DNA from: Escherichia coli
GTDB lineage: Bacteria; Pseudomonadota; Gammaproteobacteria; Enterobacterales; Enterobacteriaceae
Length of the DNA stretch: 64,000 nt
Reading direction: 5' to 3' (one strand)
Assembly (NCBI RefSeq): GCF_041248615.1
Contig: NZ_CP158426.1
A model generated the notes under the pieces. It was not told where the DNA came from. It made no database searches and saw only the letters and a program-made list of their open reading frames with translations. The position numbers and the translations under genes were made by a program. Below, piece by piece: positions 807 to 63,356 of this stretch. The first letter of the stretch is position 1, and every line of letters begins with the position of its first letter.

Positions 807-1974
807 TCCACAACCGCTGGGCGGCAAAATCATCAGTAAACCGGTCATGATTTTTGGACCGTTAATCGTCATCTGTATGCTCCTGATTGTGAAGCGTCTG
901 GTGTTCGGTCTGGGCTCTGTCTCTGACCTGAACGGCGGCTTCCCGTGGGGTGTGTGGATCGCGTTTGACCTGCTGATTGGCACCGGCTTTGCCTGTGGCG
1001 GCTGGGCGCTGGCGTGGGCGGTATACGTCTTTAACCGTGGGCAATACCATCCGCTGGTGCGTCCGGCGCTGTTGGCGAGTCTGTTTGGTTACTCACTGGG
1101 TGGCTTGTCGATCACTATCGACGTGGGTCGCTACTGGAACCTGCCGTACTTCTACATTCCGGGTCACTTCAACGTGAACTCGGTACTGTTCGAGACGGCG
1201 GTCTGTATGACCATCTATATCGGCGTGATGGCACTGGAGTTTGCTCCGGCACTGTTTGAACGTCTGGGCTGGAAGGTGTCGCTACAGCGTCTGAACAAGG
1301 TGATGTTCTTCATCATTGCACTTGGCGCGCTGCTGCCGACTATGCACCAGTCTTCAATGGGGTCGCTGATGATCTCGGCGGGCTACAAGGTGCATCCGTT
1401 GTGGCAGAGCTATGAAATGTTGCCGTTGTTCTCGCTGCTGACGGCGTTCATCATGGGCTTCTCGATTGTCATCTTTGAAGGTTCGCTGGTGCAGGCGGGT
1501 CTGCGTGGCAACGGTCCGGATGAAAAGAGTCTGTTCGTTAAGCTGACCAACACCATCAGTGTGTTGCTGGCGATTTTCATCGTGCTGCGCTTTGGCGAGC
1601 TTATCTATCGCGACAAGCTGTCGTTAGCGTTTGCCGGTGACTTCTATTCCGTGATGTTCTGGATTGAAGTCCTGCTGATGCTCTTCCCGCTGGTCGTTCT
1701 GCGTGTGGCGAAGCTGCGTAATGATTCCCGCATGCTGTTCCTGTCAGCACTGAGCGCGCTGTTAGGTTGTGCAACCTGGCGTCTGACCTATTCGCTGGTG
1801 GCATTCAACCCGGGCGGCGGTTACGCCTACTTCCCGACCTGGGAAGAACTGTTGATTTCTATTGGTTTTGTGGCTATTGAGATTTGCGCTTACATCGTAC
1901 TCATTCGTCTACTGCCGATACTTCCTCCTTTAAAACAAAACGATCATAATCGTCATGAGGCGAGCAAAGCATGA
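796..1974 (+). CDS. hybB: Hydrogenase-2 integral membrane (cytochrome b-like) subunit HybB
   Basis: 392-aa polytopic hydrophobic ORF. It overlaps the hybA stop and the hybC start (translational coupling) and is recognised as HybB. Confidence 0.95.
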
Positions 1975-8358: not shown

Positions 8359-11300
8359 ATGAATAAGAAATTTAAATATAAGAAATCGCTTTTAGCGGCT
8401 ATTTTGAGCGCAACCCTGTTAGCCGGTTGTGATGGCGGTGGCTCCGGATCTTCCTCCGATACGCCGCCTGTAGATTCTGGAACAGGGTCTTTGCCGGAAG
8501 TGAAACCTGATCCAACACCAAACCGGAGCCGACGCCGGACCCAGAACCTACGCCGGAACCGACACCTGATCCTGAGCCAACACCTGAACCGGAGCCAGAA
8601 CCTGTTCCTACGAAAACGGGTTATCTGACCCTGGGCGGAAGCCAGCGGGTAACTGGTGCTACCTGTAATGGTGAATCCAGCGATGGCTTTACATTTACAC
8701 CTGGTGAGGACGTTACTTGCGTGGCGGGTAACACGACAATTGCCACCTTCAACACTCAGTCAGAAGCTGCGCGTAGCCTGCGTGCGGTTGAAAAAGTGTC
8801 GTTTAGTCTTGAGGACGCGCAAGAACTGGCGGCTTCCGATGACAAGAAAAGCAATGCGGTTTCGCTGGTAACGTCCAGTAACAGCTGTCCGGCGAATACA
8901 GAACAGGTTTGCCTGACGTTCTCCTCAGTGATCGAGAGTAAACGTTTCGACTCGCTGTATAAGCAAATCGATCTGGCACCGGAAGAGTTCAAAAAGCTGG
9001 TCAATGAAGAGGTGGAAAACAATGCCGCGACCGATAAAGCGCCATCCACTCATACTTCACCGGTCGTGCCTGTCACCACGCCGGGAACAAAACCGGATCT
9101 GAACGCTTCCTTCGTGTCGGCTAACGCGGAACAGTTTTATCAGTATCAACCTTCGGAAATCATTCTCTCCGAAGGTCGACTGGTAGATAGTCAGGGGGAT
9201 GGTGTAGTTGGCGTCAACTATTACACCAATTCCGGCCGTGGTGTAACCGGAGAAAACGGGGAATTTTCCTTTAGTTGGGGGGAAACCATCTCCTTTGGCA
9301 TCGACACTTTTGAGCTTGGTTCTGTGCGTGGTAACAAGTCGACTATTGCGCTGACGGAGCTGGGCGATGAAGTTCGCGGGGCAAATATCGATCAGCTTAT
9401 TCATCGCTATTCGACGACCGGGCAAAATAATACCCGTGTTGTGCCGGACGATGTACGCAAGGTCTTTGCCGAATATCCCAACGTGATCAACGAGATTATC
9501 AATCTCTCGTTATCCAACGGTGCGACGCTGGATGAAGGTGAGCAAGTTGTTAATCTGCCAAACGAATTTATTGAGCAGTTTAAGACGGGTCAAGCCAAAG
9601 AGATCGATACCGCGATTTGTGCGAAAACCGACGGTTGTAACGAGGCTCGCTGGTTCTCGCTGACGACGCGCAATGTTAATGACGGCCAGATTCAGGGCGT
9701 TATCAACAAGCTGTGGGGTGTGGATACAAGTTACAAATCTGTCAGCAAGTTCCATGTATTCCATGACTCCACCAACTTCTATGGCAGCACCGGTAATGCG
9801 CGCGGTCAGGCGGTGATGAATATCTCTAACGCGGCCTTCCCGATTCTGATGGCGCGTAATGATAAAAACTACTGGCTGGCCTTCGGCGAGAAACGCGCCT
9901 GGGATAAAAACGAGCTGGCGTACATTACGGAAGCGCCTTCTCTTGTTGAGCCGGAAAACGTTACGCGCGATACCGCCACCTTTAACCTGCCGTTTATTTC
10001 GCTGGGGCAAGTCGGTGAGGGCAAACTGATGGTTATCGGTAACCCGCACTACAACAGCATTTTGCGTTGTCCGAACGGTTACAGCTGGAACGGGGGCGTT
10101 AATAAAGACGGGCAGTGTACGCTCAGCGGTGATTCAGATGACATGAAGCACTTCATGCAGAACGTACTGCGCTATCTGTCCGACGATAAATGGACTCCGG
10201 ACGCGAAAGCCAGCATGACCGTAGGCACCAACCTGGATACTGTCTATTTCAAACGTCATGGTCAGGTTACAGGAAACAGTGCTGCGTTCGACTTCCATCC
10301 GGATTTTGCGGGTATCTCGGTTGAGCATTTAAGTAGCTATGGCGATCTCGATCCGCAGGAAATGCCGCTGCTGATCCTTAACGGCTTTGAGTATGTGACT
10401 CAGGTGGGGGGCGATCCCTATGCAGTGCCTCTGCGTGCAGATACCAGCAAACCGAAGCTGAGCCAGCAGGATGTGACCGATCTGATCGCCTATCTGAACA
10501 AAGGCGGTTCGGTGCTGATCATGGAAAACGTGATGAGCAATCTTAAGGAAGAGAGCGCGTCTGGTTTTGTGCGTCTGTTGGATGCTGCAGGTCTGTCAAT
10601 GGCACTGAACAAGTCGGTGGTGAATAACGATCCTCAAGGGTATCCGAACCGCGTTCGTCAGCAGCGCGCAACGGGCATTTGGGTCTATGAACGTTATCCT
10701 GCCGTAGACGGTGCGCTGCCGTACACCATCGATAGTAAGACAGGGGAAGTTAAGTGGAAATATCAGGTAGAAAACAAACCTGATGACAAACCGAAGCTGG
10801 AAGTTGCCAGCTGGCTGGAAGATGTAGATGGCAAACAGGAAACGCGTTATGCCTTTATTGATGAGGCCGATCATAAAACAGAGGATTCTCTGAAGGCTGC
10901 GAAGGAGAAAATTTTCGCCGCGTTCCCGGGGCTGAAAGAGTGTACTAATCAGGCATATCACTACGAGGTCAACTGTCTGGAATATCGTCCTGGCACGGGG
11001 GTTCCGGTTACTGGTGGCATGTATGTTCCACAGTATACGCAACTAAGCCTTAACGCCGACACGGCAAAAGCGATGGTGCAGGCTGCGGATTTAGGCACCA
11101 ACATTCAGCGTCTGTATCAGCATGAGCTCTACTTCCGGACCAATGGTCGCAAAGGTGAGCGTCTGAGCAGCGTCGATCTGGAACGTCTGTACCAGAACAT
11201 GTCGGTCTGGCTGTGGAACGAAATTGAATATAGCTATGACAGCAGCAAGGATGACGAGCTGGGCTTTAAAACGTTCACCGAGTTCCTGAACTGCTACGCC

Positions 11301-56800: not shown

Positions 56801-59262
56801 CGCAATCCTTTTATTTCTGGCGTACGCTCTTTAAGGCATCCGGCTGAGAGGCTAATGATCACTCCTCGCTCACAACGGACCTTCAGCTCAGCCGCTCCGG
56901 CCGCTTCATGCCATGAATGTACGCAGCCAGTCAGAATATTAAGGTGCGGATTTCAGTTCACTTGTCAGCCCAGTGATACAGGACAGTAATGACCAACAAT
57001 TTGGTATTGATACAACAAGTTGCGGCCCCGGTTCGTGGGGGAGATGAAACGACGGTAGCTGAAGTTACTGAAATGAAGAATTCAGAGAGACTGAATGATA
57101 TGCCTCACCTTTAGTGAATAGTGTAAAAACGGGAGACTCTCACCCGAGATTATCCACTCATGCTCAATGTATAATTTTCGTGCCCCTCACAGGTAAGAGC
57201 CGGATGCATTCGTTGTGTACGTTGCAGAATTGGTAACCGGGGACCCTGCAGTCTTTAACTCCGAGTCTTGTGCTGCTCATTTGCCACAAAATCCTGGTAC
57301 GCCAGCTCAATCATTTCATTCAACAGTTTTTTTGGGGGGCACCACGACTTCGGGCAATACTTTCAGGCTGTTTGTGGATTTTTCCGGACAGTTTCAGCGG
57401 AACGGAACCATCAGCACGTTCATCACGCCTTTTTTGTTGCTCCCGGGCACTTTTCAGTTCATCCACAATATAGCTGCTCTTCTCGCATTTTTGCCGATTT
57501 TAAAAATGCGAACAAAACATCCGTACATGATGTACAGATTAAACTGCCAGGGACTGGTGTCAGAAAGCCTCCGGTTAGCCTGCTCTTTCCGGAATGTGCC
57601 GGTTATGAAAAACCGGAAATTCAGTCTCTGTTGTAAGATGTACCCTCTGATACTACGTTTTCGTTTTCTCTGTGTATTTAACTCACTGTATTTATTGTCT
57701 TTTTAAGCCTGACTGATATTCTCCGGTCATAGTGTGCCGGATAGACATCCCGTAACCTTCTCATTTTTATATAAAAATACCTGCACTGTCTTCAGCGCAT
57801 CTGTCTCCTTTAAGTAAAAAATGTTTTCACGTATTGCTGTAAATTCATTTTAAATCAGTATGTTATCCTGATATTGCTGTCTCCTGGTTTGATGCGTAAT
57901 CGTTCTGCCTTTCTGGATGATTCTGGTGCTTCCGGGTGCATTCTCCTCTGCACATGCAACAGTTCGTCATCGCCACGTGCCCAAAAAGCATATAAAAACG
58001 AATCGAATCTGATCGTTTTTTCAATCGTTTTTCACAGGAATTTCGTAGGGTGTTCTCCGCTATAGCCTCCATATTTGCTGTCTTTTTCTTCATAAATCGT
58101 ATGCAATATAACCAGTCTGTCAAGACATCTTCCCTGCTGTTGAGGTGACGATCTCATTTCTGGTCTTTTCCGGGAGAGAGACGGTCAGATGAGCGAGCCG
58201 GATTTACTGCCAGAGGTACTCCCCGCGGCAGAAAATAGTGCTCCTGTTTCCGCAATCCGGGATCGGCAACGTCCCATGGTTAATGCCACTTGCAGCGTCA
58301 GGCACTGCAGGTTTACGTCGTGATCTGATTTCTTCTGCACTTATCCCGATCACGGAAGTTCCCCCTGCGCAGACATCGGTTCCTGCCGACATCTCACAAT
58401 ACCGCCAGGCTGTCATGCAGTAACACCCGCAATGCGGTCTGCGGTTTTAAGCGCACTCTCCTGTTTTCAGTGCACCGATAAGCGTTATAGAAAGTCTGGG
58501 GTGAGTTACTGAATGTCTGTTAAGTGGTGCCGTGGGTGGAGACTGCTTACTTTTCCACAGCAACTGCAGTCATTCAGGATGCTCAGGAGAGAATATGTCA
58601 ACGCCACGAGCCGGGCCATTTTCATGCCAGCCAGTATATTTTCTACACTGATGCAGTCTGATTTTCACCATTCCATCCTCACTGATTGTCGTGTTGTTTT
58701 GGGTCATCACCACAGCTTTCCGTTTCTCTTTTAATCGGTAACGCTCTCCTTTGATATTCAGCGTGGTTGAGTGATGCAGCAGTCAATCCAGGAGCGCTGT
58801 TGTCCGGCAACCACCATATCAACTTCTTCCCGGCGTGCCGGCGCTGGTATCCAGGCCGGGTTTCGAAGCGAAGCGTTCCTGACGGACTCATTGACATCCG
58901 GGCCGGATGTAGTCATGCAGCATGGAACGTCCGCCCGTATACACTGACGGCGTCCGGCCGTGTACAGAGATCGGTAAAATTCGTTACTACAACTGTTCCT
59001 GAATATCTGACGAAGAAACATTCAGCAATAACATCCGGCCGTGTACATCTCTTTTGCGGTGCAGGGAGCACTGTCGCCATGTACTTATTGTCACCAGGGT
59101 GAGGCATGTACCGCAGCATGCCAGCTCAGCAATGACAGGATGCCCTTAAGACATCCGTCATGGCTCAGTATGATGACGACGAACACGCTCTGCAGGTGAG
59201 CATGCAGGGCCGGGGGTATCATCATTTCCGTATTTTGCCGCACCTTCCGGAAACAACCGGCA

Positions 59263-59871
59263 TCAGTTACGGTTACCGTCAACCGTTGTGCGGTATGCCA
59301 GGAGCACGTACTGATCCATCAGATCCGTCAGTGCTGCGTTCTGCTTCTGACGGTCGATGATCCATTCCCCCAGCTCTTTTTCTGATTTCCGTTTCAGGTT
59401 CTCCGTCCAGTCGTCAAGGCTGTTTCCGGTCATTAAATCAAGCCAGCAAAGCCAGACCAGTTTGAGGCGCAACTCCGTGCCACCAAACTGACGGAAGAGG
59501 CTGATCAGTTTATTTGCCAGAGAACGCTGCCTCAGACGTTCACATTCAGACAGCAGAATCCCTTCCAGCATCGGATGATGAACCAGCAGATGTTCGCTGG
59601 TGCATAAGTTCACCACCAGATCATCATCCAGGGGCGGCGTGGCCCGTTTGTCAGAGCCATAAATCAGCCGGTGCAGACTCCGGGGTACGATGGCAATCTT
59701 CGGTTTTTCACCATTGAATGACACCCACCCGGGCGTCAGATTATGGAAGTAGTGGATATTCGGATGACACACGCCCCAGGATACGGCGTGCCGGGTGAAG
59801 CCGGTCAGCCATTTCTGGTAGCTTTCGTGGAGCAGCTCGTAACGGGTCTGATACTGTGGTTTCATTTTCAT
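59263..59871 (-). CDS. Hypothetical protein (about 202 aa), downstream of alpA-like gene
   Basis: It has a clean ORF with an AGGA Shine-Dalgarno sequence before the ATG at 59871. I recognise no motif. Confidence 0.55.
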   Translation of the reverse strand: MKMKPQYQTRYELLHESYQKWLTGFTRHAVSWGVCHPNIHYFHNLTPGWVSFNGEKPKIAIVPRSLHRLIYGSDKRATPPLDDDLVVNLCTSEHLLVHHPMLEGILLSECERLRQRSLANKLISLFRQFGGTELRLKLVWLCWLDLMTGNSLDDWTENLKRKSEKELGEWIIDRQKQNAALTDLMDQYVLLAYRTTVDGNRN

Positions 59872-59958
59872 ATTCCTCACGGGGGATAACAGGCAGCAGA
59901 GTGCCGCCGGCAGGCCGGAGATTGCGTCTGCTGTGGGCGAAGGGCCAGTGGTTAAAAA

Positions 59959-60165
59959 TTACGGACGGGACTGTGCAATACGCGCCTGCAGCCAGGCTTC
60001 CACTTCACTTTTCAGCCAGCGGGAGCTGCGGCCGAGTTTGATGGGAGCCGGAAAGGCCCCATCCTTGATGAGCTTGTAAAACCACTTATCGGTCAGGCCG
60101 GTCAGCTGAGTGATAAACGTCATATCGACCATCTGGTCATCCATCAGCGAAACTGGGGTGGTCAT
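59959..60165 (-). CDS. alpA: AlpA-family (prophage CP4-57 regulatory) DNA-binding protein
   Basis: 68 aa; FITQLTGLTDKWFYKLIKDGAFPAPIKLGRSSRWLKSEVEAWL matches the AlpA/MerR-like HTH pattern. Confidence 0.85.
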   Translation of the reverse strand: MTTPVSLMDDQMVDMTFITQLTGLTDKWFYKLIKDGAFPAPIKLGRSSRWLKSEVEAWLQARIAQSRP

Positions 60166-60548
60166 AAAAATCTTCTCCGGATGTTGTTAATCTCAGCCGG
60201 CGTTGATGATGAAAACAACGCACCACCTTCACCGGCATAACAACCGGGGAGAAACGTAAAAAATCAGTAGGGGAATATTCCTGCCAGGAGAGAAACTGTT
60301 GTGTACAGGCAATACAGGTTGTCTGTTTTGTCAGTGAAGCCGGTATAAACGGAAGATGATTTTGTGTTGCCGGAATATGGGATGGCGTTTTGCCGTGACA
60401 GGATCAGTATTTTCAGTGATGATTATTACTGTGCAGGGGAGTACCGGAGATAAACCACGCCCTGTACCTGCCAGAGCGGAGGTTTGTATTGACTGAACGG
60501 AAGATAAAGCGAGGTAAACACTGTTGCGGTGAGCGGAGAAGACTGAGA

Positions 60549-61340
60549 TTATTCTCTGTAATTACAAACAACAGTGATCTGATCCGGTTTTTTTACCGTT
60601 ACGGGTTTCCGGGGATCAATTTTATAGACCGGGGTAATGACCACGCCGGAATTTATGGAGAAAAGCGGGATCCAGCAATAAACGTCCGGATATTTCTGTG
60701 TCTCCGGAATACCTTTTGTGCCAGAGGCCATCAGATCTTTAACGCTCACGAAAAATGACTTCCGCAGATCAAAAAAGTACTCGTTATATATCACATCCTT
60801 TGCCAGCAGGATGACTGCATTACCAACAGCCGATTTTACAGGTGTTTCATCAGGTGGATTATCGTGATTGTATATTGTTCTTTCTATATAAATAAAACAG
60901 GCATATTTCGTCTTCTCCCCGGATAGTTGCATCTGGTATTCGCAAATGTCTTTGATATACCGACTTTCAACCCTTCCAATCATCTTATCCCGGCGATAGT
61001 GTCTTTTATGTTTCAGCGCGTACAGAACACCATTTGAACTGTCAAACTCCAGGACACTTCTGGTGAAAAGTTTGTTTTCCCAGATCTCCAGACAATACTT
61101 CTCTGCACTGACGACATTGCGTTTGTGGGGAAGATTCCGTTGATACACTCCATTTAATAAGCGTGACTGCAGTTCGCCTGCAAGTTGATAGTAACAGTTA
61201 ATGTCATTAAGGACAGGTGCTGTGGCGTTGAGTAATGTGTTGATTACCTTAGAGCGCGAAAGTTTGTGGGTATGACAGTACTCATCCACAATTCGCAGTG
61301 TCTCATCACTGGTCATATTGAAAGTTATACGTGTTGTCAT
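60549..61340 (-). CDS. Hypothetical protein with N-terminal ribbon-helix-helix-like segment fused to an unassigned domain of about 210 aa
   Basis: 263-aa ORF in AT-rich DNA. The N-terminus TTRITFNMTSDETLRIVDEYCHTHKLSRSKVINTLL has the beta-strand, helix, helix pattern of CopG/Arc/MetJ proteins. The rest has no motif I recognise. Confidence 0.55.
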   Translation of the reverse strand: MTTRITFNMTSDETLRIVDEYCHTHKLSRSKVINTLLNATAPVLNDINCYYQLAGELQSRLLNGVYQRNLPHKRNVVSAEKYCLEIWENKLFTRSVLEFDSSNGVLYALKHKRHYRRDKMIGRVESRYIKDICEYQMQLSGEKTKYACFIYIERTIYNHDNPPDETPVKSAVGNAVILLAKDVIYNEYFFDLRKSFFVSVKDLMASGTKGIPETQKYPDVYCWIPLFSINSGVVITPVYKIDPRKPVTVKKPDQITVVCNYRE

Positions 61341-61670
61341 GATGAAGTTTTCTGTTAATCATACTGGTTGATATGCATAACATTTCATAAAAAATACTGT
61401 TAATTCATATAATTGATTTTTTGACTGGTTTTATCCTCGTGTGGTGGAAAGCAGTATTACTGCCACTGTAGTCAGCATAAATCTATCACACAGAACCACC
61501 GAAAATGAAGCATTGCTCAGGGGGAAGCTGCCACTCGTATGAGTTCTCTGAACCATGATAACCAGTATTTTTCGTTTTGGGTGATTTGTTTATCGTTACA
61601 GCTACATACAGTTCATGTACCATTAAAAAATAATAAAGGTTAATTAGTATTATTTATAGAAGTATGTTTA

Positions 61671-61748
61671 TGTAATTCTACCGTGTAAATGAACCCTGTA
61701 ATTCTACCTTGTAAATACACCTTGTAACCAAGTCCTGTAGAAGTCTGT
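61671..61748 (+). repeat. Six phased 13-bp tandem repeats with TGTAA/TGTAG core (two near-identical 26-bp units, then diverging)
   Basis: TGTAA(G) starts at 61671, 61684, 61697, 61710, 61723 and 61736. The units are tgtaattctaccg / tgtaaatgaaccc / tgtaattctacct / tgtaaatacacct / tgtaaccaagtcc / tgtagaagtctgt. Further CTGTA(A/G) copies are scattered to about 61960. Confidence 0.8.
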
Positions 61749-62018
61749 CTCATAGAAGTATCTGTGCAGTGATATTCTCTGTAGTAGTACTTGTAACTCT
61801 GTTCTTAACTCTCTCTTCAGTAATGTAGTCCCGCAACACCTGAATATAAATCTGTAATGTTCACACACTGACTGTAACGTGCTTTGTTAAGTAATGTCTG
61901 CTATTTTTTTTCTGTTATTTTTCCTGTTGTTTTCTGTATTTTGTTGTATGGTGTAATAACTATTCTGAACCCGTCATCACCTTTATAGCTAAGAGTATGA
62001 CTTCGCCAGTGTTGATAC

Positions 62019-62027
62019 TGTGGATAA
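62019..62027 (-). promoter_or_regulatory. Perfect DnaA-box 9-mer (TTATCCACA on minus strand)
   Basis: TGTGGATAA is read on the plus strand. This is a single copy, so it may be chance. Confidence 0.3.
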
Positions 62028-62756
62028 CGGTGATTAAGGAATTACTGTTAATGATCTGTTCCTGCAGCTCACCTGATGAGTTTTGGTAGTAATACGTAAA
62101 AGAGTATGCCTCATGTCATTAAAAAGTCTTCCGGAGTGTTGTTTAACCCTGTACCTCTGTTACTCATGTAGTACGTTGCGGAAAGCTACGTTAATTGTAA
62201 TATCTGGTTATGGCGTTATGCCTTCAGTATTAAAAACATCTTTTACCGGAGAAACTGGGAAGTGGAAAGGCTTTCGGGATAACGTCAGGCCATTATGACG
62301 ATATTACGTTAATCACAGTACAAGATAACGAGAGGGTAATGGAATTTTAAACCAGAGTAGTTCCACTGTTGTTCACTGGAAAAAGTGATTTCCCACGCGC
62401 GTTATAAGCTTACTCCAGAGGAGATGGAAGCCTTCAACTCTGCGGTCGATCACCGGCTGGCAGAACTGACCATGAACAAACTTTACGATCGTGTTCCCGC
62501 TTCAGTCTGGAAATATGTTACCTGATAAATGTTTCTGATGAAGTACAGTCGTCACAATGACATCACTTCAGATATTATCTGCGCTGTGATTGACTGTCAC
62601 GTATGCCGTTCTCTGTATGGTTCTGATACCCGGGTGTGGTCCCACTTTCTCTGTGGCGCCCGGGGAGTTGTGAACCTGCACGTCTTCGTGTGATAACGTT
62701 TTCTTCAAAAATTACGCCAGCGCTTCTTCCTGTGTTACAGAACACGAGGAAGAAAC

Positions 62757-63356
62757 ATGAAGACTTACAACACCAATCCCGGTTACGAAATGGATCCCCA
62801 GCTCCTGACACACTTTAACCAGCATCTGGATTCATTATTCGGGGTATATTCGAAACTGTTACCGTTCAGAATGGATTTTGCTTACCGAAAAAACACCCTC
62901 AGCTACAGATGTGCCTGCAGGTACGCCATGTGCGCGGAGATACTGCGACTGATTAACGAAGTGGGAGAGAAACTGGTCGGGTATGCCTGGGTAATGGAAT
63001 ATACGGAACGTAAAGGGCTTCACATTCATTTTGTGGGCTATCTGAACGGTCAGAGCCACAGGAGTTCGTATCTGGTATCCAGATTGATGGGAGATATCTG
63101 GAGGCGGGTTACCGGGGGGGATGGTTACTACCACTGGTGCCGGTTTAATAAAAATTATCCGGTAAACATTAACCACGTCATTCACTATTCAGATCACAAA
63201 GCGGTGAATGCCTTACGCTATGCCATCAGCTACCTGGCCAAACGAGAACAGAAAGAATGTGGCATCATCCTGAAATGCAGCGGGCTTCCTGAAAAAAGTA
63301 ATCGGGGTCGACCGCGACTGGGCAGCCCCCTGCCGGAGACTTATTCTCTGGTGTAA
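62757..63356 (+). CDS. YfjJ/YagK-family (inovirus Gp2-like) protein
   Basis: 199 aa; ..LPFRMDFAY.., GLHIHFVGYL and RYAISYLAKREQK parallel the K-12 YfjJ motifs as I recall them (..HYHVVLFL.., ..ISYLAKAKTK..). Confidence 0.75.
   Translation: MKTYNTNPGYEMDPQLLTHFNQHLDSLFGVYSKLLPFRMDFAYRKNTLSYRCACRYAMCAEILRLINEVGEKLVGYAWVMEYTERKGLHIHFVGYLNGQSHRSSYLVSRLMGDIWRRVTGGDGYYHWCRFNKNYPVNINHVIHYSDHKAVNALRYAISYLAKREQKECGIILKCSGLPEKSNRGRPRLGSPLPETYSLV

Follow-up and report, generated by a model that had tools for sequence, protein, structure and literature searches.

A candidate regulatory and excision module of YagM-, AlpA- and F200-type genes in a CP4-57/CP4-6-type island of Escherichia coli

We analysed a 64,000-nt stretch of an Escherichia coli genome (contig NZ_CP158426.1, assembly GCF_041248615.1; hereafter the window) with three consecutive minus-strand genes encoding a 263-aa YagM-family protein, a 68-aa AlpA-type protein and a 200-aa protein, termed F200, that is the conserved partner of AlpA. 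The AlpA-F200 pair is part of the backbone of CP4-57/CP4-6-type integrative islands and lies at the border of a cargo hot spot without itself being cargo. We favour, with moderate confidence, reading the trio as the regulatory and excision module of such an island, in which YagM would be a probable ribbon-helix-helix (RHH) repressor.

The yagM-like gene (60549-61340, minus) starts with ATG and encodes 263 aa, the alpA-type gene (59959-60165, minus) encodes an excisionase/transcription-activator helix-turn-helix (HTH) protein of 68 aa, and the F200 gene (59263-59865, minus) encodes 200 aa when read from the ATG at 59865. The three open reading frames (ORFs) in series that the initial annotation had listed are thus all present, and the 2.7-kb stretch containing them is 100% identical to several complete E. 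coli genomes. The F200 ORF can also be read from a GTG at 59880 (59263-59880, 205 aa), and RefSeq gives 202 aa. Homologues in other genera begin with MK(D/E)YK at the position that corresponds to the ATG at 59865, and GAGGAA lies 7 nt 5' of it, so that this ATG is most likely the start and 200 aa the product length. The GC content of the yagM-like gene is 0.419, compared with 0.556 for alpA and 0.528 for the F200 gene, which bears out the earlier remark that it is AT-rich relative to its neighbours; the 1-kb spacer upstream of it has a GC content of 0.361.

The 68-aa protein matched the Pfam family Phage_AlpA (PF05930) with 37 bits against a cut-off of 21 (E 3.1e-9), its residues 11-59 covering profile positions 2-51 of 51. 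Excisionase families of PHROGs matched it as well, and its nearest solved relatives in the PDB were the AlpA-family structure 8c3t and the excisionase TorI. It shares 25% identity with K-12 AlpA (E 1e-5). Judged by these matches, it is a bona fide member of the AlpA/excisionase-type family. The AlpA of CP4-57 turns on the integrase and triggers excision of the island. In an identical locus (NZ_CP135671), a tyrosine integrase is found at the end of the island, about 12 kb from the module, and related loci also carry integrases. From its family membership, the AlpA of the window would be the excisionase-type activator of its island, acting as in CP4-57.

The gene order around F200 was compared in a synteny set of 31 loci, one per species, with neighbours scored by profiles. 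AlpA was directly upstream of F200 on the same strand in 29 of the 30 assessable loci, and a YagK/YfjJ gene (inovirus Gp2/Rep-like) flanked the pair on either side in 30 of 31. On the far side of the pair, most loci had a divergent gene in a position that we call slot X, followed by an operon running from a GTPase gene through DUF932, antirestriction, RadC and CbeA genes to CbtA. The AlpA-F200 pair is therefore a backbone element of CP4-57/CP4-6-type islands. It occurred in 3508 of 5426 complete E. coli genomes (65%), with a median of two copies. The spacer between the two genes (59866-59958, minus) is 93 nt long in the window and of near-constant length in most genera (about 95-105 nt). It contains an imperfect extended hairpin (inner stem TCCGG/CCGGA, outer stem CAGCAGA/TCTGCTG) located 5' of a conserved CTGCCTGT...AAGGAAT ribosome-binding stretch. 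Such a fold is frequent in the spacer across genera; the hairpin was not significant (z-scores from -2.0 to +1.2), had one covarying pair and was absent from Yersinia. AlpA and F200 form a fixed two-gene unit that is probably co-transcribed.

F200 belongs to a very common family for which the label of orphan in the initial annotation was mistaken: its homologues fall into more than 250 clusters, all sampled members being from Enterobacterales. Identity across genera is mostly 48-66%, and long stretches are invariant, HHPMLEG..LLSEC and VWLCW.DL among them. No match was found in Pfam, NCBIfam, PHROGs or PADLOC. The structural model (predicted local distance difference test, pLDDT, 70.5) comprises a long N-terminal helix, a beta hairpin and a six-helix bundle; fold searches returned generic helical bundles only from the PDB and nothing from BFVD. 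A Cys/His metal site was considered and dropped, as both motif histidines are missing in a 33%-identical homologue, and homology to YagN (no similarity) and to YfjI was likewise rejected. That 33%-identical homologue is encoded at 1107-1646 (+) of OR851001.1, an UNVERIFIED 3.6-kb low-coverage "Salmonella phage" contig, where it adjoins HNH-like and zinc-ribbon ORFs and has no AlpA upstream; the contig probably represents DNA of an island or host and not of a phage. Second, weaker F200-like ORFs in the cargo regions of two comparison loci, L017:12962-13624 (+) and L032:16683-17111 (+), with profile E-values of 2e-29 and 1.6e-16, suggest divergent paralogues or tandem islands. In the window, RefSeq also places an opposite-strand 66-aa hypothetical protein (WP_011076196.1, 59160-59360, +) over the 3' end of the F200 gene, which is probably spurious.

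The DNA directly past the pair differed from locus to locus and included BREX, Dnd with a DndFGH-like set, and type I restriction-modification (R-M) systems. The same F200 protein, identical in sequence, stood beside different cargos: a set of SNF2, AAA, S8-peptidase and methylase genes, or fimbrial genes and genes for transporters of the major facilitator superfamily (MFS). When the first three large ORFs downstream were screened with PADLOC in 27 species loci, type I methyltransferases were found in 6-7, type I restriction subunits in 4 and PrrC in 4. Because the content past the pair varies while the pair itself is kept, AlpA-F200 stands at the boundary of a cargo hot spot and is itself not cargo. 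The initial annotation had placed the genes where islands often carry accessory modules. They do adjoin such a variable region, but the trio belongs to the backbone or regulatory junction, and cargo starts past F200. In the window, positions 56900-59262 past F200 contain no long ORFs and consist of debris of an IS21-family insertion sequence (IS), the "AAA family ATPase" fragment there being IstB; the hot spot is hence empty or decayed here. MFS, hydrolase and LysR genes follow beyond the debris. An Rfam search of 56.8-64 kb returned only CRISPR-DR13 at 58639-58668 (-), with 27.9 bits against a gathering threshold of 37 (E 0.41); this match, inside IS debris and lacking a repeat array, was taken as chance.

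The 263-aa protein had also been described as an orphan, yet newer RefSeq annotations name it "YagM family protein", and PF27701 (UCP007319) is precomputed for cluster representatives 93-95% identical to it and for all its other homologues. K-12 YagM aligned with it over the full length at 25% identity (BLASTP, residues 5-257 on 40-275, E 7e-15). On this basis it is a YagM-family member. The family is small, with 45 representatives among 1.8 billion proteins in an exhaustive profile search. No relatives were found among 50,697 phage records, and a literature search returned no functional study of YagM, K-12 yagM appearing in high-throughput lists only.

The anatomy proposed at first, an N-terminal RHH fused to a larger domain of unknown function, was correct in outline, and the RHH assignment is plausible, with matches that are all sub-threshold. 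The putative DNA-binding domain corresponds to codons 1-40 (61221-61340, minus), with the strand RITFNM and helices at residues 12-24 and 29-38. CopG was the top PDB match of the family profile (residues 1-39, E 0.15, sub-threshold). The RHH model NF053762 (aCcr1) matched 15 of 26 members with a best E-value of 1.7e-4, all under the 60-bit cut-off, and DUF6364 gave sub-threshold matches in five of the 26; Pfam RHH_1 matched neither the 263-aa protein nor the family members. In the alignment of 26 diverse homologues the RHH was the best-conserved segment and its Ser30 the sole invariant residue, while D191, G207 and P225 were nearly invariant outside it. The putative N-terminal strand-helix-helix pattern, together with tandem short repeats upstream of the gene, would be shared with known RHH regulators; the C-terminal domain is not recognisably like that of NikR. 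This alpha/beta domain of about 220 residues matched no known fold, and single-protein and profile searches of the PDB found nothing known for it. No catalytic motif was conserved in it across the 26 homologues, consistent with the initial annotation, which had recognised none, and the pattern of conservation does not suggest an enzymatic active site.

Two non-coding features lie upstream of the yagM-like gene. Just 5' of its start codon is a 29-nt block, GTTATGCA-N10-TATGATTAACA (61353-61381, minus), which is kept in four genera (E. coli and loci L009:9945-9990, L008:9950-9995 and L035 ~8630-8670) whereas the remaining spacer sequence is divergent. The E. coli copy contains the near-palindrome TGTTATGCATATCA, and the block is a candidate promoter or operator. 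A tandem array of five 13-nt units, NGGTNNANTTACA (61671-61727, minus), was detected by Tandem Repeats Finder about 330 nt 5' of the start; a pattern search found four overlapping dimers where 0.02 were expected. Seven and eight copies are present in two further E. coli alleles (L054:5040-5260 and L055:5040-5260), and sigma-70-like promoter matches overlap the array of the window. The array is a candidate repeated binding site. Downstream of the gene, a terminator-like hairpin (60458-60478, minus) was found by consensus scan only, 70 nt past the stop codon and with a poor T-run, and similarity to other islands sets in again about 100-130 nt 5' of alpA. These two features suggest that yagM-like and alpA-F200 are separate transcription units.

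The position of YagM was similar wherever the family was seen. In Citrobacter-like, Kluyvera, Hafnia and Cedecea loci, slot X is occupied by YagM, divergent from YagK/YfjJ-AlpA-F200. The Pectobacterium YagM is also divergent from YagK/YfjJ-AlpA and stands directly at the head of the GTPase...CbtA operon; in Aeromonas, YagM heads a DUF932...RadC...CbeA operon; in locus L051 it lies between AlpA and the integrase; and the genes of K-12 CP4-6 are arranged as yagM-ykgV(HTH_17)-yagN-intF. YagM was thus at a regulatory junction or at the head of backbone operons in every context, and never inside cargo. In most other species slot X holds non-homologous, unannotated proteins of 304-337 aa that have no Pfam match (e.g., L002:8284-9198 (-), L003:7526-8539 (-) and 17 more loci). 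One of these slot-X proteins showed weak C-terminal matches to Arc and RepB-RCR_reg, of the RHH clan. A relationship of the 304- and 337-aa proteins to YagM was rejected, as hhalign gave a probability of 0.3 and aligned a short RHH-like stretch only.

Within E. coli, the yagM-like allele was present in 758 of the 5426 complete genomes, and the full trio was contiguous in 607. At least 80% of the gene was covered in 750 genomes, with 95-100% identity in nearly all. The island of strain C11 (locus L050) has the same layout without YagM: by blastn of the window against it, 538 nt stand where the window has an AT-rich 2.0-kb cassette (60297-62295, GC 0.36-0.47) comprising the yagM-like gene and its upstream region. 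Because the C11 island is collinear without it, YagM is an optional cassette between the hha-like/yagK-like operon and alpA.

The two genes on the other side of this cassette are on the plus strand. The hha-like gene (62385-62525; Hha/YmoA family, 46-49 aa, annotated in RefSeq) matched PF05321 at profile positions 16-57 of 57 (E 4.9e-20) and is divergent from the yagM-like gene across the 1-kb spacer of 36% GC. An island-encoded, Hha-like H-NS co-regulator thus adjoins strongly AT-rich DNA. The YagK/YfjJ gene (inovirus Gp2/Rep-like; 62757-63356) is a backbone gene that elsewhere directly flanks AlpA-F200. An exact 21-nt block, AATTATACTAAAAACCCAAAT, precedes the YagK/YfjJ gene in nine loci of several genera (among them L008:9822-9842, L009:9802-9822, L016:3301-3321 and L026:8811-8831, and also L034, L035 and L037). 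Its presence is independent of YagM in slot X, and it is absent from the window.

This arrangement has counterparts in K-12. As in CP4-57 (alpA, yfjI and yfjJ by intA and yfjH), an AlpA-family gene heads a co-directional set with a YagK/YfjJ gene, and a gene of about 300 aa of unknown function lies on the other side; the CP4-57 set is followed by the cargo defence genes abpAB and rnlAB and then by the GTPase-DUF932...toxin/antitoxin backbone, as in the present islands. Unlike in CP4-57, the AlpA of the window is only 25% identical to K-12 AlpA, F200 rather than YfjI/DUF3987 follows AlpA, and the preceding gene is of the YagM type rather than YfjH. CP4-6 resembles the window in having a YagM homologue, a small HTH_17/AlpA-like gene and a small gene of unknown function on one strand, with yagK nearby. 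It differs in that its YagM is 25% identical, its YagN has no similarity to F200, the integrase directly follows, and the resolvase-like yagL is immediately upstream of yagM.

In the module as we read it, the pair has the Rep-like YagK/YfjJ gene on one side and the variable cargo on the other, and F200 would be a factor of the island life cycle (excision, replication or induction) rather than a cargo function. The YagM-like protein is most likely a transcription factor whose RHH would recognise repeated sites in the AT-rich DNA 5' of its gene, whose C-terminal domain may serve oligomerisation or signal sensing, and which would repress or tune divergent island operons. A regulator is preferred over an enzyme because of the RHH evidence, the RHH being the best-conserved segment with no invariant residue outside it, and the promoter-proximal block and the 13-nt array. 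The autoregulated RHH protein suggested by the initial annotation is plausible.

Our confidence is moderate because DNA binding, repression and any activity of F200 are all inferred, and several observations weigh against this reading. Every RHH match of YagM falls below its family threshold. The AlphaFold model of the protein is poor (pLDDT 44.8), which leaves the C-terminal 220 residues effectively unread. In the window YagM is co-directional with AlpA, not divergent, and it is optional in E. coli, a pattern that also fits an accessory gene. The 13-nt array was not found in the YagM loci of other genera, and its variable copy number may reflect plain slippage. Sequence, profile and fold searches of the PDB detected no DNA-binding or enzymatic signature in F200. 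Finally, IS21, IS3 and ISL3 elements lie between the module and the integrase, and the island looks partly decayed.

The optional nature of YagM bears on the idea put forward in the initial annotation, that the yagM-like gene is a self-contained accessory cassette encoding an autoregulated effector (a fused antitoxin-toxin, an abortive-infection protein or an exclusion protein), in which the RHH controls its own expression and the C-terminal domain does the damage. The presence or absence of the 2-kb AT-rich segment between collinear E. coli islands would suit such a cassette, as would its lower frequency (758 genomes, compared with 3508 for AlpA-F200), the occupation of the same slot by non-homologous 300-aa proteins in other islands, and a C-terminal region without a known fold. 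PADLOC, however, had no model matching the 263-aa protein, PHROGs gave a single weak, unannotated match (E 0.16), and neither Pfam nor NCBIfam detected a toxin domain. The lack of any invariant residue outside the RHH, the consistent location at regulatory junctions or heading backbone operons, and the absence from phage records also argue against an effector, which we regard as unlikely. The AlpA-F200 pairing is strongly conserved and no homology to a characterised family was found, so the idea is unsupported rather than disproved.

Similarly doubtful is that the module of the window is an inactive relic, kept by hitch-hiking and by H-NS/Hha silencing. IS21, IS3 and ISL3 remnants and pseudogenes surround it, about 12 kb with IS elements separates it from the integrase, and AT-rich DNA adjoins the hha-like gene. 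In one other strain F200 is interrupted by IS3. Within-species ratios of non-synonymous to synonymous substitution rates (dN/dS) were 0.28-0.41 for YagM, 0.41 for F200 and 0.08-0.38 for AlpA; the values of 0.28-0.41 are only mildly below 1. Against decay of the genes themselves, all three ORFs are intact in the compared alleles, the yagM-like gene is well covered and nearly uniform in 750 genomes, and F200 retains 48-66% identity and long invariant stretches across genera.

A bolder version of the regulatory reading draws on Stl of the Staphylococcus aureus pathogenicity islands (SaPI) and on phage CI, in which a DNA-binding domain is joined to a larger variable domain, the gene has a promoter divergent from an excision/replication operon, and alleles differ strongly. 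By analogy, YagM and the non-homologous slot-X proteins might be interchangeable, Stl-like master repressors that sense different helpers (phage or conjugative plasmid), with AlpA-F200 as the switch held down and F200 as a new excision or replication factor that also drives defence cargo on induction; we consider this improbable as a whole. The likeness of YagM to Stl and CI is a functional analogy only: its domain is RHH and not HTH, its operator and inducer are putative, and it is co-directional with alpA in the window.

Dedicated regulators sit upstream of BREX and other systems. Least likely among the alternatives is that AlpA-F200 mainly regulates the adjacent cargo in this way and couples its expression to island induction, for although many loci have BREX, Dnd, type I R-M or other defence genes immediately after the pair and co-directional with it (YagK/YfjJ and a zinc-ribbon gene may accompany the pair), the same F200 protein also precedes non-defence cargo (fimbriae and MFS transporters), only IS debris lies past F200 in the window, in several loci the cargo starts with genes of the opposite orientation, and F200 is far more conserved than any cargo, which points to a partner in the backbone or host.

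Related islands are also known outside Enterobacterales. The tmRNA-associated islands of Pseudomonas, which are moved by a jumbo phage, have a core of a tyrosine integrase (intY), alpA, inovirus Gp2-like, RadC and YqaJ genes and carry diverse defence cargo, according to the report describing them (PMC12595487). The enterobacterial islands share this core; they differ in host clade and integration sites, and the text consulted mentions no YagM or F200 homologue.

AlpA, the YagM family and the island class were already known, and F200 is an unnamed but very common family. That AlpA and F200 form a fixed pair and that YagM occupies a variable regulator slot are useful organising observations and not a new kind of system, and the trio does not amount to a new system of defence or toxicity. 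Most E. coli and many other Enterobacterales have islands of the CP4-57/CP4-6 type, which carry much defence and fitness cargo and whose silencing and induction are poorly known beyond AlpA. Placing YagM and F200 in the island control region, and not in the cargo, gives two y-ome-type proteins a testable role, and the AlpA-F200 pair provides a practical landmark for locating the cargo hot spot.

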